DNA from: Dictyoglomus sp.
GTDB taxonomy: Bacteria > Dictyoglomota > Dictyoglomia > Dictyoglomales > Dictyoglomaceae
DNA: 64,000 bases
NCBI GenBank assembly: GCA_025060475.1
Contig: JANXBZ010000009.1
Coordinates: 31,406 to 95,405, forward strand
Direction of reading: 5' to 3'
Shown: one piece after another, positions 1-23,200 of the stretch
Layout: each line of letters starts with the position of its first letter
Numbering within the stretch: position 1 is the stretch's first letter
Notes under the pieces: generated by a model
Told to the model about the DNA's origin: nothing
The model's input: the letters and a program-made list of their open reading frames with translations, nothing else
Databases searched by the model: none
Translations under genes and position numbers: made by a program

Positions 1-2
1 AA

Positions 3-107
3 ACTAAAGTAAAAATTCAACCAAGATCTCCTGAAAAGGGGAAAATAACCATAGAATATAGAAGTTTAAAGGAATTAGAAAGAATCATAGAAAAATTCAT
101 GCTATGA
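3..107 (+). CDS. parB: ParB/Spo0J-type partition protein, C-terminal tail only (gene begins upstream of window)
   Basis: Frame open from the window edge: TKVKIQPRSPEKGKITIEYRSLKELERIIEKFML*. The pattern T-x-V-x-I...KGKI-x-IEY-x-S-x-x-EL-x-RI matches the conserved ParB/Spo0J C-terminal tail as I recall it from B. subtilis Spo0J. Stop TGA 105-107 overlaps the next ATG (ATGA). Confidence 0.55.
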   Translation, partial: TKVKIQPRSPEKGKITIEYRSLKELERIIEKFML

Positions 108-6668: not shown

Positions 6669-7394
6669 ATGCTTTCTCTTAAAGGAAAGATAGCATTAAT
6701 TACTGGTGCCAGTAGAGGAATAGGAAGGGCTATTTCAAAGGCATTAGCCCAAGAAGGAGTAAATCTTGCTATCAATAGTAGAGCAGAAGAAGGATTACTT
6801 ATTCTAAAAAATGAATTAAAGGATTTTGGAATAGATATTCTTCTTTGTCCTTTTGATCTAAAGGATCCAAAAACCCCAAAATTAATTATTGAAAAAGTAA
6901 TTGAGTATTTTGGAAAATTAGATATCCTTATTAACAATGCAGGAATTGCTTTAGCAAAACCAATAATAGAAACCAAGGAAGAAGAATGGGATGAAATTAT
7001 GGCGGTTAATGCTAAAGCACCCTTCTTTTTATGTAAATATGCAATCCCTTATCTTAAAAAATCCGATATACCAACGATAATAAACATATCATCTGTTGTG
7101 GGTACAAAGGGATATATTAATCAAGGAGCTTATACTGCTTCAAAACATGCCTTAATGGGATTTACAAAGGTTTTAGCTCAAGAAGTCCATGATGATGGAA
7201 TAAGAGTTCATGTTATAGCACCTGGTGGTGTTGCAACAGATCTTGTAACAATTATGAGACCTGACATAGATCCTGAAACCTTGATAAAGCCTGAGGAAAT
7301 TGCTGAAATTATAATATTTCTTTTAAAATTCCGAGGTAATGCTGTTATTGATGAGATAAATGTCAGAAGAGAGAAGAATCCTCCTTGGAGATAA
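6669..7394 (+). CDS. Short-chain dehydrogenase/reductase (FabG-like)
   Basis: TGASRGIGR cofactor motif, NNAG, catalytic S...YTASKHAL (YxxxK). Confidence 0.85.
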   Translation: MLSLKGKIALITGASRGIGRAISKALAQEGVNLAINSRAEEGLLILKNELKDFGIDILLCPFDLKDPKTPKLIIEKVIEYFGKLDILINNAGIALAKPIIETKEEEWDEIMAVNAKAPFFLCKYAIPYLKKSDIPTIINISSVVGTKGYINQGAYTASKHALMGFTKVLAQEVHDDGIRVHVIAPGGVATDLVTIMRPDIDPETLIKPEEIAEIIIFLLKFRGNAVIDEINVRREKNPPWR

Positions 7395-7461
7395 TTGAAT
7401 CTTTTAAAACCCTTTTTTATTCTTTTTTTATCCGCTCCTTTTTACAACTAAGATTTTTCAT

Positions 7462-7647
7462 TTATCCACAGTTGTGGATAATTTTGTGGATTACCTGTGG
7501 ATAACTCTGTGGATAACTTGGGTAATCTGTGGATAATTTTGTGGATAAATTTTTAAATGGGGATACTGTGGATAAAATGTGGAAAGTTATCCACAGGTAA
7601 AAACCTTTTATATAAAAGGTCTATTTGAGTTATCCACATTATCCACA
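7462..7647. other. DnaA-box cluster (oriC-like): 10 perfect TTATCCACA 9-mers in 186 bp
   Basis: TTATCCACA on the + strand at 7462, 7587, 7630 and 7639. TGTGGATAA at 7473, 7496, 7508, 7528, 7540 and 7567. Near-matches at 7428 (TTATCCGCT), 7485 (TGTGGATTA), 7578 (TGTGGAAAG) and 7717 (TGTGGACAA). Intergenic, no ORF. Confidence 0.75.
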
Positions 7648-7664
7648 GCCCCTACTACAACTAC

Positions 7665-7698
7665 AATATTATTTTTTTATATATAAATTTAAATATTT
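7665..7698. other. 34-nt pure A/T tract flanking the DnaA boxes (candidate DNA-unwinding element)
   Basis: AATATTATTTTTTTATATATAAATTTAAATATTT contains no G or C and lies 18 nt from the last DnaA box. Confidence 0.5.
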
Positions 7699-7728
7699 GT
7701 TATTGCAGTTGTAAATTGTGGACAAATT

Positions 7729-10533
7729 TTAAAATTGTCCTGTAGATAAATACATATAGAATCTTCCAGTTTCTTTAGGATTTTCTGTTCCAAGATAAAC
7801 AGGAAAAGCATATCCTATAACAAAAGAGAGGGGAATATCAAAAAATGTTGTAAAATTATAGGAATTTTCTATTCCTAATCCAATTTTTAATCCCTTATAA
7901 TCTATTTTCTCATTTTTGTTCCATACTCCTCCAATTTCTGTAAATACATTTAAATGAATATCTCTTAGAATAAATAAGTTAAAAAATTTAGTTTCCTGAT
8001 CCCTTAATAAGGGAATATTCCAGTTAATATTTAAAGACCATTTAAAGTCTCCTTCATAATCATCTATCAAAGATTTCCAATCCTTTAGGTTAAATCTTTC
8101 ATATTTATTTATAAAACCAGAGGGATCTTTTTCTATTGATATATAACCTGTTGTATTATTAATAGTTAAATAACTATGAGGAAAAACAAGGAAATATTTT
8201 AATAAATTCCAAGAGAGCTTATAAAATCTTTCCGATTGAAAAGGTAAAGAGGAACGGAAATTTAAAGTGTTAATCATTGCAAGACTATAGAGATCTTTTA
8301 ATCTTGTTAGATTTAGATCAAAATATGAATAAAGGTCATATCCCAATGTTAAATTTAATCTATAGGAAGGCTGCCATAAGTTTCCACTTATTCCTAAAGA
8401 AAATTTCTCCCAAAAGCTTTTACTTAGAGTAAATAAACCTGCATAATAATCAGGTTGAATAAATAAAAGGGCAAAACCAAAATAATCATCCCTTGGTAGA
8501 TATCTTATAAATTGAAAGATAGTTCCTGGATGGTAATATCCATAAATATCCTGAAAATATAATCCTTCAAGACTCCACCAGTGATTTATAGGATCATATC
8601 CTTCTATTTTATAAGAAAGATTGGTTATCTGTCCTGTAGAAAGATCAATAGAAAAAGAGGGATAAAGATCATAATAAATGACATAGGCGTCAAGAGGTCT
8701 TTTTATTTTTGAAGTATAAATTACCTTTCTTGGTAAGGAATTATTTAATCGGTTAATATCTGGAATCATAGAATCAGGATCCAATTCTACCCTTATTACC
8801 TTATCCTTTGTCTGAAAATCTAAGTATATTTCTTTCTCTTTTCCATCATAAATTCTTCTTAATTTTTCTCCCTTTGTGGTCTCTAATAAAATTTCTACAG
8901 GCAATATTCCATTCCCTTCTCTTTTTAAATGGACCCTTGTAATCCAATTTTCTCCAAATTTGAAACTTTCAAAGTTTAATACTTGCCAATCTATAGTTGC
9001 AGTGGAATAAAACCATGTATTAAAGAAGTCGGTAAAGTCCCTTCCTGTTATTTTATTGATAAGATTTTTAAAATCTTCAGTACTTGCAAATTTATCATTA
9101 TATTCTTCATAAAAAGCTCTTAAAAATTCATTAAATTTTTCTTCCCCAATCATAAAAGCTAAACTTCTTAATAATAAATAGGCTTTGTTATATACTTTAT
9201 TTGTATATCCATTATAATTACTGTTCCAATAATCTTTAACAATGGGCTCATCCCATCCATCCCTTATATATGTTAAATAGGGATATTCCACCTGTGATTC
9301 CCTTAAATTCCATTCTCCCACTAAATAATCTTTTAAATAGTTTAGAAAATAATCCTCTCCTAAATCAGGGAAAAGATTTCCACCTTTTGAGCCATATTTT
9401 TTCTCAAAATAATATATAGAAGAATATTGTGACAGAGCTTCGCTTATCCAATTTTCCCAGTCAAAATCTGCTCCTACTCCTATGCCCCACCATAGATGGG
9501 CAATTTCATGAGCAAGAAGCCACTCATTTATTCTTTCTAAAAGAAAGGGAGAGAAAAGATCTGATGAGTAAAAAACACTATTTCCAAGAAGGATAAAATT
9601 ATCCGCAGTCATTCCCCAAAAACCTTCTATTTGTCCTTCCACAATAACTATTCTTTTGTGTTTTGATGGTCCATATAAAGATTGATAATAAGCTAAAATC
9701 TCTTGGGCAAGACTTGCTAAAATTCTTGCTTTATATTCTCTTCCCTGATAAAAATAAAGGGATATCTCGGGTGTAGTTTGTATTATTGGTTTGTAAACAA
9801 GATATTTTTTACTTAAAGCAATAGGTAGAGATCTTTTAGGATTATAATTTTTTCCAATAACCTTTTTCCAGTTTTCATTTACGATTTCTTCTTTTTGTTC
9901 GTCTACTCCTAAAGCAACTACATAATCCTTTGGAACCATTAATTCTATATTAAAATTACAAAGGGTTAATCTTCCTCCTTTATCCCATTCTCCCTTTATA
10001 AAATGTAGTTCTTGAGGAAACCATCCAAATCTCCATATAAAGGAATCTTTAGCATAGGACATATCTCCCATATATGCTTTAGGGAATTTTGTGGAGAATA
10101 AGATTTTTAAATAAAAGGATCCTTTCGGAGAAAGGGGTTCTGGTAGAATAACTCTTAAATAATTATCTTCTAAAGAATAATTGGTAAATAAAATTTTTCC
10201 CTTTTCTAAAGTATAATTTAATCTATTTCCTTTCTTGTCAAAAATATTTCTTATTTCAGTATATGCTGGATCAAAACCATTAATATAATAGGAATCTTCT
10301 ACAACAGGATGAAGATAGGGATTATCCTTCTTACCAAGATTAGCAGGAAGATAAAAATAAATTTCTGAAATATTCTCATTGGTATTATTAATGTAATTTA
10401 TTTCCACATATCCATTGATTTTTAAATTTTTTGGGTCTAATTGGACAAAAAGATTGTACGTAGAAAAACTTTCCATGGCATAAGTTGTGGAGAAAAGGAA
10501 AAGAATTAAGAAATATATGAAAAATTTTCTCAT
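7729..10533 (-). CDS. Secreted M1-family zinc metallopeptidase fused to a C-terminal Omp85/surface-antigen-like beta-barrel
   Basis: Signal peptide MRKFFIYFLILFLFSTTYA with GGAGG 7 nt upstream of ATG 10533. HEIAHLWWG-x18-E (WISEALS) is the M1 gluzincin motif. The last ~330 aa are aromatic-rich with alternating residues and end ...FTEIGGVWNK...GLKIGLGIEN...RFYMYLSTGQF with a terminal Phe, as in Omp85 barrels. Confidence 0.75.
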   Translation of the reverse strand: MRKFFIYFLILFLFSTTYAMESFSTYNLFVQLDPKNLKINGYVEINYINNTNENISEIYFYLPANLGKKDNPYLHPVVEDSYYINGFDPAYTEIRNIFDKKGNRLNYTLEKGKILFTNYSLEDNYLRVILPEPLSPKGSFYLKILFSTKFPKAYMGDMSYAKDSFIWRFGWFPQELHFIKGEWDKGGRLTLCNFNIELMVPKDYVVALGVDEQKEEIVNENWKKVIGKNYNPKRSLPIALSKKYLVYKPIIQTTPEISLYFYQGREYKARILASLAQEILAYYQSLYGPSKHKRIVIVEGQIEGFWGMTADNFILLGNSVFYSSDLFSPFLLERINEWLLAHEIAHLWWGIGVGADFDWENWISEALSQYSSIYYFEKKYGSKGGNLFPDLGEDYFLNYLKDYLVGEWNLRESQVEYPYLTYIRDGWDEPIVKDYWNSNYNGYTNKVYNKAYLLLRSLAFMIGEEKFNEFLRAFYEEYNDKFASTEDFKNLINKITGRDFTDFFNTWFYSTATIDWQVLNFESFKFGENWITRVHLKREGNGILPVEILLETTKGEKLRRIYDGKEKEIYLDFQTKDKVIRVELDPDSMIPDINRLNNSLPRKVIYTSKIKRPLDAYVIYYDLYPSFSIDLSTGQITNLSYKIEGYDPINHWWSLEGLYFQDIYGYYHPGTIFQFIRYLPRDDYFGFALLFIQPDYYAGLFTLSKSFWEKFSLGISGNLWQPSYRLNLTLGYDLYSYFDLNLTRLKDLYSLAMINTLNFRSSLPFQSERFYKLSWNLLKYFLVFPHSYLTINNTTGYISIEKDPSGFINKYERFNLKDWKSLIDDYEGDFKWSLNINWNIPLLRDQETKFFNLFILRDIHLNVFTEIGGVWNKNEKIDYKGLKIGLGIENSYNFTTFFDIPLSFVIGYAFPVYLGTENPKETGRFYMYLSTGQF

Positions 10534-10858
10534 TTTTCTACCTCCAAAGCTAAAAATCAAAAATTCTTTTAAATACTTATATAAATTATACATCAGAATT
10601 ATTTCTTTTGTTGATATTCTTTTTAATTAATGTTAAATTACTTGTTGTTCCACCTTTTAAAAATCCTCCTGCTGTTTCCTCAGAAATTTTTAATTATTAT
10701 CATAATGTTGGGGATATTTCCTCCCTTGGAAATGAAGGATGCGTAGGCTATTTAGAAGTAAAAAGAGACCTTAAAATACTCAAGAAGCTTTTATTCCTAT
10801 GTTAGGAGCTGGTATTATCTGTCTTGCTCCTGCTACTCCTGATAAATCCTCTCCAGCA

Positions 10859-20281: not shown

Positions 20282-23200
20282 CTATTCGCCTTTTTCAATT
20301 ATGCTTATTTCTTCCTCTGTTAGATCGTAAAGCTTGTAAACTAGGTGATCAATTTGTTGCTCAAAATAGGAGGTATCTGCTTGACAGCCTTCCTCTTTCT
20401 TAATTTTTATAATCTTGTCCACTAAAGATTCAATTTGGTTAATGATATTGAGATTTTGAGGAGTAATTGGAGGAATAGGAAGTTGCTCTAAGAAAGCTTT
20501 CTTATAACGATAGCCTTCTTCTCCTAATCCTCCTCCTGAATAAAACTTTTTGAAAATATAGGCTACGGGATTTGAATTTAAAATACCACAGAGATATTTA
20601 AGGTTGTTACCTGTCATAATGAAACCAGTAGCCTCAATATAAAATTTTTCTTTATCATAATAAAACTGAGGTTCTCTAACAATCTCTTGCCACACTATTT
20701 TTTCTTTTTCAAATTCTGGATAATAAGCTATATTATCTTGCGTCTCAAACCATTTATTGTTAGTTTTCTTTCTATGGCCTGGCCTTCCATCTTGTAAAAG
20801 TCTATCTCCAAAACCTTGTAGATAATCTTTTAGGGAAGGATAATTATTAATATTTAAGCTTAAAGCAGGAAATGTACTAATTATCCAAAGTCCCTTCCAT
20901 TCATAGCAATATCTTCCAATATCTCTTCCTCTTAAAACAGGCTTTATAATATCTTCAGTCCTTTTTCTTTCCTCAATAGTTTTACAATTTTTCAATATCT
21001 TGTCTCTTGTTTGAGTATCTATTATAAAAGCTTCATTAAAGCCAGTCTTAATTCCAAAGTATATTTTTACATCCCATTCTTTTAATGGTTTTCCTAATTT
21101 TTCAATTTTCTCTTTTAATCTTAATATGCTGTAATCTGCAAGAATAAAGTTCTTTTCAGAAAATGAATTTTGTTCTATTTTATTCCAGTTTGATTTTATG
21201 TAGTCTATTACTTGAGTATGATTTGGTATAATGGATGGAACATTTACAAAGTTAACTTGATTATTACAAGGATGTTCTTTTTTAAATATTACTATGCAGG
21301 TATCTACTGTTTGTTCAAAAACAGAAAATCCACCAAAATCTACTATTTTTAATATTTGAGTATTATCTTTCAAGAATTTTCTTAAGCCTTCTCCATATTT
21401 AGCTCTCATCCATTTATTACTTGAGATAAAACTAAGGATACCTGATTTTCTGAGTAGATCAAATCCTTTCTCATAAAAATAAACATAAAGATCCGCTGTA
21501 GAAGAGTAAACCTTATATCCTTCTTTCTGCAAAAAAGGCTTTATATCTCTTATCTTTTCTTGTCTTACGTATGGCGGATTTCCTATTACAATATCAAAAC
21601 CATCGGTTACTCCTAACATCCATTCTGGATCAAACCAATCTCCTTGAGCTGTTTGATCAAAAATATCAAAATTTGCTATTTTCTCTACATTTTCAGCGTT
21701 CCAACCTTCTTTTAGCAAGATCTCTTTTATTTTATATCTAATTTCCTGAGCTTCCTTTTGAAGTCTTTTTTTCTCATCTCTTGTCTTTATATTAAAATGC
21801 TTCTTATACAAATCTTTTAACTGTTCTTTTAAATCCTTTAGTATATGGTCTCCCATATTTACTTGATTGGTTTTTTCCAATCCTATGAGGGTATTTGCAC
21901 ATACAAATCTAGTTTCAAGATGAGGGAGAGGTTTTATTCCATAATTTTCTTTTTTTTCATCGATCTTTTGATCAATAAGTAGGGAGAGGAAAAATCTCAA
22001 TTTACAAATCTGGACAGCAATAGGTTGTATATCTACACCATATATTGAGTTTTCTATCAAGTACAATTTTCTTGCGTAATCTGGATAATTTATACTCTCA
22101 TCAAAGTTATCATTTACTTCTTTTAGGTATTTTTCCCTTTCTTCTTTATCTTTTATCTTAAGTATTTTTTCTATCTCATTAAGAGCTTTATTATACTGGA
22201 GTTCATACCAAAGTTTATTATCAGAGTCTATTCTATTGAGTATATATACAAGTTTGTGTACAACTCCCATTGGAAAAGCACCAGAGCCCACTGCAGGATC
22301 TATAACTTTTATTGAGTCTATAGCTTTTAAAAGAGCAAATTTTTCCTCCTCTTTTAAATCTATATCTTCTTTATAGGATAAGATTTCTCTTAGTCTTTCC
22401 TCTTTTATTTCTGTTTTTGTCTTAAAGTATTCTATTAAGGCTTCTTCTACCATAAAGTCTACAATCTCTTTTGGAGTATAGTAGGAGCCTGTAGCTTTTC
22501 TTGCTGTAGTTTGTGTTTCTGGATTGTAAGAGGCAAGAAGATTTTCAAAAATGTGTCCTAATAGCTCCGGATCAAGGGATACTTCTACATCTATAGGCGT
22601 ATTTTCATCGGCAGTAAAATTATAATCATTAAGTATATTTATCAAGCCCCTTACTTTTACTATTCTTTTTTCTCCGTAAAAGTCTGATAAATCTTCAGTT
22701 CTTTCAGGAGAAAAGAATAGAAAATCTGGGACTTTTGCTCTTTTATCTTCTCTCCTTGAGAATCCATCTATATAATTTGAATCGTCATCAAGACACTCAA
22801 AAAGTCCTCCGTTTATAAAGGGTATCTTCTCAAAGATTTTTATAAACTCCCTTTCAGATATATTTAAATATTTTTCATACCTAAAAAGATTTTTTACTCC
22901 AAAATTTTTTCTATTTTCAGGAAAGCCTAAATCTTTAGCAAAATCCCTAAATTTTCTATCTTGATTTAGAGTTGCAAAAAAAAGATTTTGAAGAATTACA
23001 TTATAATAATAATCTTTAATTCCAAAATCTTTTACTATATTTTTAAGCTCATTAGGTTCAAAGATTACTTCTGGAATAAGCTCCTTTTCTTTAAGAAACC
23101 ATACGAATATTATCCTAGTAAGGAGTCTTATAAGATTCTCCTCAATTTTACCTCCTGGGAAATAAGCATGTTTTAAAGACCATGCGTACCAATTTTGAAT

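Follow-up and report, generated by a model that had tools for sequence, protein, structure and literature searches.

The locus between positions 7395 and 7728 raises the question of whether an array of DnaA boxes that lies beside neither dnaA nor dnaN is the replication origin of its chromosome. The DNA analysed here, a stretch of 64,000 nucleotides referred to below as the window, corresponds to C81:31406-95405 of an 81-contig draft genome (1.72 Mb, 31% G+C, 99.6% complete) of an uncultured member of the Dictyoglomota. A preliminary description of the sequence had left two readings side by side, an origin uncoupled from dnaA and a DnaA-titrating locus of the datA type. It is proposed here that 7395-7728 is very probably the single chromosomal oriC, physically uncoupled from both dnaA and dnaN. 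What is read directly from the data is that the sequence elements are present, that they are unique in the genome and selectively conserved, and that the orthologues coincide exactly with a switch in strand composition in two complete genomes.

An array of perfect DnaA boxes between two convergent genes

All ten exact copies of TTATCCACA in the 64-kb window fall within 186 bp (7462-7647), against an expectation of 0.68 for the window as a whole, and none of 100 shuffled sequences reached ten. When up to two mismatches are allowed, 16 sites are found in 366 bp, where 1.8 are expected. The ten perfect boxes (four on the + strand and six on the - strand) and their position in a 334-bp gap between an SDR gene and an M1-peptidase gene were recovered as first described; the single head-to-head pair reported then was located at 7462-7481, and the near-matches, given as at least four, number six. 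The elements of the gap and its borders are the following.

6669-7394, + strand: SDR (short-chain dehydrogenase) gene
7395-7728: whole intergenic region of 334 bp between the convergent SDR and M1-peptidase genes, taken as the very probable oriC
7428, 7558, 7578: three boxes with two mismatches
7462, 7587, 7630, 7639, + strand: four exact TTATCCACA boxes
7473, 7496, 7508, 7528, 7540, 7567, - strand: six exact TTATCCACA boxes
7485, 7717, 7741: three boxes with one mismatch (TAATCCACA, TTGTCCACA and TTATCTACA, respectively)
7462-7595: putative DnaA-oligomerisation region, with eight exact boxes and one one-mismatch box
7462-7481: head-to-head box pair TTATCCACAGTTGTGGATAA, formed by 7462(+) and 7473(-)
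7473, 7485 (the one-mismatch box), 7496, 7508, 7528, 7540, 7567, - strand: head-to-tail run of boxes, mostly 11-12 bp from start to start
7587, + strand: single box, followed by a 34-bp spacer before the tandem pair
7630-7647, + strand: two abutting perfect boxes, TTATCCACATTATCCACA, which face the unwinding element and are the counterpart of the B. subtilis basal unwinding system (BUS) boxes 6/7
7717-7725, - strand: the one-mismatch box beyond the unwinding element
7741-7749, - strand: the one-mismatch box within the 3' end of the M1-peptidase gene
7729-10593, - strand: M1-peptidase gene

The box at 7741-7749 is only a possible part of the origin. A perfect 18-bp palindrome, ACCTTTTATATAAAAGGT, occupies 7603-7620, in the spacer that separates the array from the tandem pair; since it is not conserved in the relatives, it is probably not a core element of the origin. 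An RNA gene in the gap was considered and dropped: an Rfam scan of the 334 bp gave no family near its gathering score, and returned only sub-threshold chance matches to eukaryotic miRNA and snoRNA models.

The initiator protein encoded by this genome fits the boxes. It is closest to the DnaA of B. subtilis (PDB 8BTG, E=7.7e-154) and retains the base-reading segment GGRDHTTVLHA, and the TTATCCACA boxes match the specificity expected of a DnaA with the canonical reading helix RDHTTVLHA.

The putative unwinding side of the array

Three further elements follow the tandem boxes in order.

7648-7651: GC cluster GCCC, 4 bp, between the tandem boxes and the trinucleotide repeats
7652-7666: DnaA-trio-like repeats, top strand CTA CTA CAA CTA CAA, equal to bottom strand 3'-GAT GAT GTT GAT GTT-5'
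7665-7698: A/T-only tract of 34 nt, taken as the putative DNA unwinding element

The A/T-only tract, which begins 17 bp past the tandem boxes, had been described at the outset as suited to unwinding, and both its length and its stability bear this out. Runs of at least 34 nt made up of A and T alone occur just four times in the 1.72-Mb genome, this tract being one of them, and the least stable 41-bp duplex of the whole 64-kb window falls within it (nearest-neighbour dG of -36.4, against a mean of -47.5 and a standard deviation of 3.4).

The arrangement resembles the BUS, for which a DnaA-trio consensus of 3'-GAT-5' and a GC-cluster spacer of 4 bp on average have been reported (PMC8287927). The BUS search rule of Pelliciari et al. 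2021 (PMC8287927) looks for a box with at most two mismatches, ideally in tandem, at 0-16 bp from the trios, and for at least three consecutive 3'-NAN-5' trios. On the box side, a 4-bp spacer separates the trios from two perfect abutting boxes, a distance of 13 bp when counted from the upstream box, which is the commonest spacing among BUS calls (PMC8287927). On the trio side, the canonical run in this genome stops after two trios and continues with GTT and then GAT, and the next run of at least three 3'-NAN-5' trios begins at a distance of 18 bp. As the strict trio rule fails here, the putative element is termed BUS-like and not a formal BUS member. Among seven relatives, the strict rule is satisfied in four (G001, G003, G004 and G006) and unsatisfied in three (G002, G007 and G008), and the published survey detected no BUS in 15% of its origins (PMC8287927). 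The oriC assignment itself is independent of BUS membership.

A single box cluster, on a contig with neither dnaA nor dnaN

The absence of dnaA and dnaN from the window, pointed out in the preliminary description, holds for the whole contig: the two genes and the cluster (C81) all lie on separate contigs of the draft.

C22:77972-79300, - strand: dnaA, an isolated gene
C77:88160-88879: dnaN
window 1-107, + strand: 3' end of parB (Pfam ParB_N, HTH_ParB and ParB_C), about 7.4 kb left of the cluster
C81:29904-29919: parS, a perfect copy of the consensus TGTTTCACGTGAAACA

The neighbours of dnaA on C22 are two SPFH/Band-7 genes and a divergent crp-like gene. The 79-bp gap upstream of dnaA holds no DnaA box, and neither a box cluster nor an origin-like feature was found beside the gene. 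Genome-wide, exact TTATCCACA occurs 26 times, with ten of these copies in the cluster, and a 400-bp sliding count over the whole draft, allowing at most one mismatch, gives 13 for the cluster and 3 for the next best position. The proposed search for a second cluster, or for one beside dnaA, thus returned none in the draft genome. This uniqueness covers the assembled 81-contig draft, in which a gap could hide a second cluster; none is present in two complete relatives. The second-best grouping of boxes, three one-mismatch sites in 175 bp at C81:52120 (about 20715-20889 of the window), lies inside a gene; as a second cluster it was set aside, being probably a chance occurrence in A/T-rich DNA.

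The tail of parB had been taken earlier as a sign of an origin-proximal location, and the surroundings of the gene agree with this. The only parS match in the genome, with up to two mismatches allowed, is the perfect copy listed above; it precedes the start codon of parA by 12 bp and lies 1.5 kb outside the left end of the window, 9 kb left of the cluster. Together, parS and the parA-parB operon mark the origin-proximal domain.

Selective conservation in three genera

Relatives were found via the M1 peptidase and carry Dictyoglomota MAG labels. Eight near-complete relatives, which belong to three genera of the same family, each have one orthologue of the gap sequence, with 73-88% identity. The share of alignment columns that are identical in all eight aligned genomes (two genera) differs sharply between the parts of the locus.

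Box columns: 81% invariant
GC cluster and CTACTAC block: 63% invariant
Spacers between boxes: 23% invariant
A/T tract: 16% invariant
Flanks: 3% invariant

The tandem box pair at 7630-7647 is kept in all aligned relatives. The box at 7717-7725, imperfect in this genome, is TTATCCACA in five of seven relatives and one base off in G004 (TTATCCCCA) and G002 (TTTTCCACA). For the A/T tract, the composition is kept in the relatives (75-95% A/T) and the sequence is not. Judged from the alignment, this pattern is the one expected for protein-binding sites together with a putative unwinding element that is constrained in composition.

The genes around the cluster are not conserved with it. In the two complete single-contig genomes among the relatives, G006 (1,855,560 bp) and G007 (1,959,987 bp), the neighbours are purE-purC and an mgtC-like gene, unlike the SDR and M1-peptidase genes here, and in both genomes the flanking genes are on the + strand. 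As the neighbours differ while the cluster is kept, the element is retained for its own sake and not as a gene-control region. DnaA boxes regulate genes in many bacteria, and the cluster could be a control region through which DnaA acts on a neighbouring gene; in the present case, however, the 3' ends of both neighbours meet the gap, which leaves no promoter to regulate, the neighbours change between genera while the cluster stays, and ten or more boxes far exceed known operators. We consider the probability of a transcriptional role of this kind to be negligible.

Coincidence with the strand-composition switch in two complete relatives

By coordinates, G006 matches Dictyoglomus turgidum DSM 6724 (NC_011661). 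In this genome dnaA is at base 381-863 and the sole exact-box cluster at 276,909-277,166, 276 kb apart; in G007 dnaA is at 1,662,869 and the sole exact-box cluster at 1,644-1,904, 298 kb apart. In both cases the distance between oriC and dnaA is about 15% of the chromosome. The dnaA gene of G006 is on the + strand of the arm in which this strand lags, and is hence transcribed head-on to replication.

When G006 was sampled in 60 stretches of about 20 kb, the raw GC skew was below zero in the arc that runs from 1.24 Mb over the numbering start to 260 kb, and mostly positive from 280 kb to 1.2 Mb, with values near zero in a few windows, and the gene-strand bias tracked the same two replichore arms. 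Raw skew mixes the effect of gene strand with that of replication, and the two were separated at third codon positions. For genes on the + strand, the GC3 skew averages +0.336 where this strand is leading and -0.078 where it is lagging; for genes on the - strand, the values in the corresponding arms are +0.067 and -0.347. These values correspond to contributions of about 0.20 from replication (the replication term) and about 0.135 from gene strand, and the AT3 skew is almost purely associated with replication. In the region from 120 to 380 kb (207 genes), the change-point of the gene-corrected GC3 skew lies between the gene midpoints 276,282 and 277,737, which bracket the cluster (means -0.214 and +0.208; SSE reduced from 14.18 to 5.41). 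A terminus-type switch at about 1.215 Mb divides the chromosome into replichores of 939 and 917 kb. For G007, over 240 kb across the numbering junction, GC3 and AT3 skew each have their change-point in the interval from midpoint 1,020 to midpoint 2,469, which again brackets the cluster (SSE reduced from 18.46 to 4.07). The isolated exact boxes gave another check: on both chromosomes they flip their preferred strand at the origin and terminus points (Fisher p=5e-4 and 1e-4).

Outside the origin, these isolated copies of TTATCCACA in G006 and G007 have a strong strand bias by replichore, their G-rich complement lying on the leading strand, and they are about two to three times commoner than the reversed control word.

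A skew minimum elsewhere, together with a better cluster beside dnaA, had been named beforehand as the outcome that would speak against an origin at this locus. In both complete relatives the check favoured the origin: the orthologues, each the only cluster in its genome, sit at the skew switch and 276-298 kb from dnaA. The other reading offered at first, a datA-type or DnaA-box-cluster (DBC) titration locus, would make the array a sink or a site of DnaA-ATP hydrolysis that lowers the amount of free initiator, with the true origin elsewhere. As is established for datA in E. coli and for the DBCs in B. subtilis, boxes of full consensus are bound by DnaA in either nucleotide form, and an array of many high-affinity boxes of this type, far from dnaA, would suit such a function. 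A titration locus needs another origin, however, and no other cluster was found in the 99.6%-complete genome or in the two complete relatives, in both of which the position of the orthologue is precisely that of the skew switch. A sink, moreover, has no need of features that serve unwinding, such as the tandem boxes, the GC cluster, the GAT repeats and the weakest duplex. The titration reading, for which no separate origin could be found, is thus very unlikely.

The same mapping bears on the possibility that the cluster serves an integrated plasmid or phage, or is a secondary or relic origin, and is not the main origin of the chromosome. Although oriC-like modules do occur in mobile elements, no mobile-element genes flank the cluster here; it is found once per genome in all eight near-complete family relatives in which a match was sought, and it coincides with a chromosome-wide skew switch that has a terminus opposite to it. 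We regard an origin of this sort as very improbable.

Strand composition in the window's own genome

In the genome from which the window comes, the replication signal is fainter. The raw GC skew of the window shows no switch at the cluster, to the right of which it stays below zero for about 35 kb; gene strand is its main determinant, and the gene-corrected skew at third codon positions was therefore used. The GC3 replication term is weaker in this genome (about 0.1-0.18). Among the large contigs, C81 is nevertheless alone in having a switch of origin type (- to +), and the mean residual is -0.094 to the left of the cluster and +0.097 to its right (p=6e-5). The change-point is resolved only to 38-61 kb of the contig, with the cluster (38.9 kb) as second-best position (SSE 3.527 against 3.512). 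Because the switch is placed no more closely than this 23-kb zone, the decisive mapping was taken from the complete relatives.

Two other positions of the draft stand out. In C81:1-8500 the gene-corrected GC3 skew is +0.11, of the reverse sign to that in the remainder of the left arm (-0.1 to -0.25); an assembly join, foreign DNA or a local inversion could account for this. On C2, the gene-corrected GC3 skew changes in the terminus-type direction (+ to -) at about 74.5-75.7 kb (+0.08 to the left and -0.17 to the right), and this position is a candidate terminus of the genome.

The caveat raised at first, that gene orientation does not obviously diverge from the site, was justified: the SDR and M1-peptidase genes both end at the gap, a convergent arrangement and not the usual divergent one. 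Despite this local convergence, the chromosome-wide gene-strand bias of G006 follows the replichores set by the orthologous site. Each of the two flanking genes is oriented head-on to the fork that leaves the origin on its side.

A proposed course of initiation

We infer DnaA binding, the site of unwinding and the firing of the origin by analogy with B. subtilis and E. coli. DnaA would occupy both the consensus-box array (7462-7595) and the two abutting boxes (7630-7647). Starting at these two boxes, a filament of ATP-DnaA may grow over GCCC and reach the bottom strand of the GAT-type repeats at 7652-7666, upon which the adjoining 34-nt A/T tract, the weakest duplex, would melt. The replicative helicase would then be loaded at the melted tract, and replication would proceed bidirectionally.

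A more speculative extension, which we think improbable, is that the origin is a self-contained, relocatable module whose timing in this thermophilic phylum is not set, as it is in E. coli, by low-affinity, ATP-DnaA-specific sites but by other means, for example transcription that enters the origin from the two convergent neighbours or filaments formed on the trios only. The idea of a relocatable module comes from the conservation of about 300 bp of sequence across three genera with different flanks, and from the unlinked positions of dnaA, dnaN and oriC; that of an alternative timing comes from boxes that are almost all of perfect consensus.

Comparison with known origins

The closest relative of the locus is a predicted one. 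In the supplement of Pelliciari et al. 2021 (PMC8287927), D. turgidum DSM 6724 (DoriC ORI92730237) is entered with a BUS at 277077-277108, given on the bottom strand as AATAGGTGT TACAGGTGT CAGG GATGATGAT, and this segment is the orthologue of window positions 7630-7660. The two origins share 78% identity over about 220 bp, the order, orientation and spacing of the boxes, the tandem pair with GC cluster, CTACTAC block and A/T-rich tract, and a position far from dnaA (276 kb in D. turgidum). They differ in that D. turgidum belongs to another genus and has purE-purC and an mgtC-like gene as flanks in place of the SDR and M1-peptidase genes, three consecutive GAT trios where two are present here, and an A/T-only run of 9 nt (in a tract of 82% A/T) where the run here is 34 nt. 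Literature searches found no experimental study of a Dictyoglomus origin; the supplementary BUS table alone has an entry for the origin itself.

Among the studied systems, incC and the BUS of the B. subtilis oriC show this layout as well, with tandem boxes (box 6/7), a short GC cluster, 3'-GAT-5' repeats and an A/T-rich element (a 27-mer in that case). The B. subtilis origin is bipartite, however, and flanks dnaA, which is beside dnaN, whereas the present one is a single 334-bp unit that is linked to neither gene and lacks the formal run of at least three consecutive NAN trios. In E. coli, oriC has gidA/mnmG and mioC as its neighbours and is about 42 kb away from dnaA; it combines few strong boxes with many weak ATP-DnaA-specific sites under IHF and GATC/SeqA control. 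The locus described here is likewise uncoupled from dnaA, its DUE-proximal box is oriented as R1, and boxes of the same direction are spaced by about one helical turn; unlike in E. coli, nearly all boxes are of perfect consensus, and no accessory sites of the IHF or SeqA type were identified. Clusters of strong boxes away from dnaA are also known as datA in E. coli and as DBCs in B. subtilis, but these coexist with a separate oriC and lie off the skew switch, while the present cluster is the sole one and lies at the switch. In the oriC of Thermotoga maritima, the boxes are of mixed orientation, a GC-rich motif is present, and the unwinding element contains TAG/GAT-type repeats (PMC10316083). 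As a thermophile origin with mixed box orientation, a GC-rich motif and GAT-type repeats it is similar to the one proposed here; its DnaA, however, reads a non-canonical box, AAACCTACCACC, with the helix RSHPVVVDS in place of RDHTTVLHA.

The existence of an origin in the sister genus (as a database prediction), the occurrence of origins distant from dnaA, and the layout of boxes, GC cluster, trios and A/T tract are already known, and no new principle is raised by the present analysis. What it provides is a well-supported annotation of the origin in the genome of an uncultured member of the Dictyoglomota. The origin predicted by the database for Dictyoglomus holds across three genera, with conservation at the level of the binding sites and an exact match to the switch in strand composition, and one more deep-branching phylum is thereby added to those with an oriC that lies about 15% of the chromosome away from dnaA and has a B. 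subtilis-like unwinding layout.
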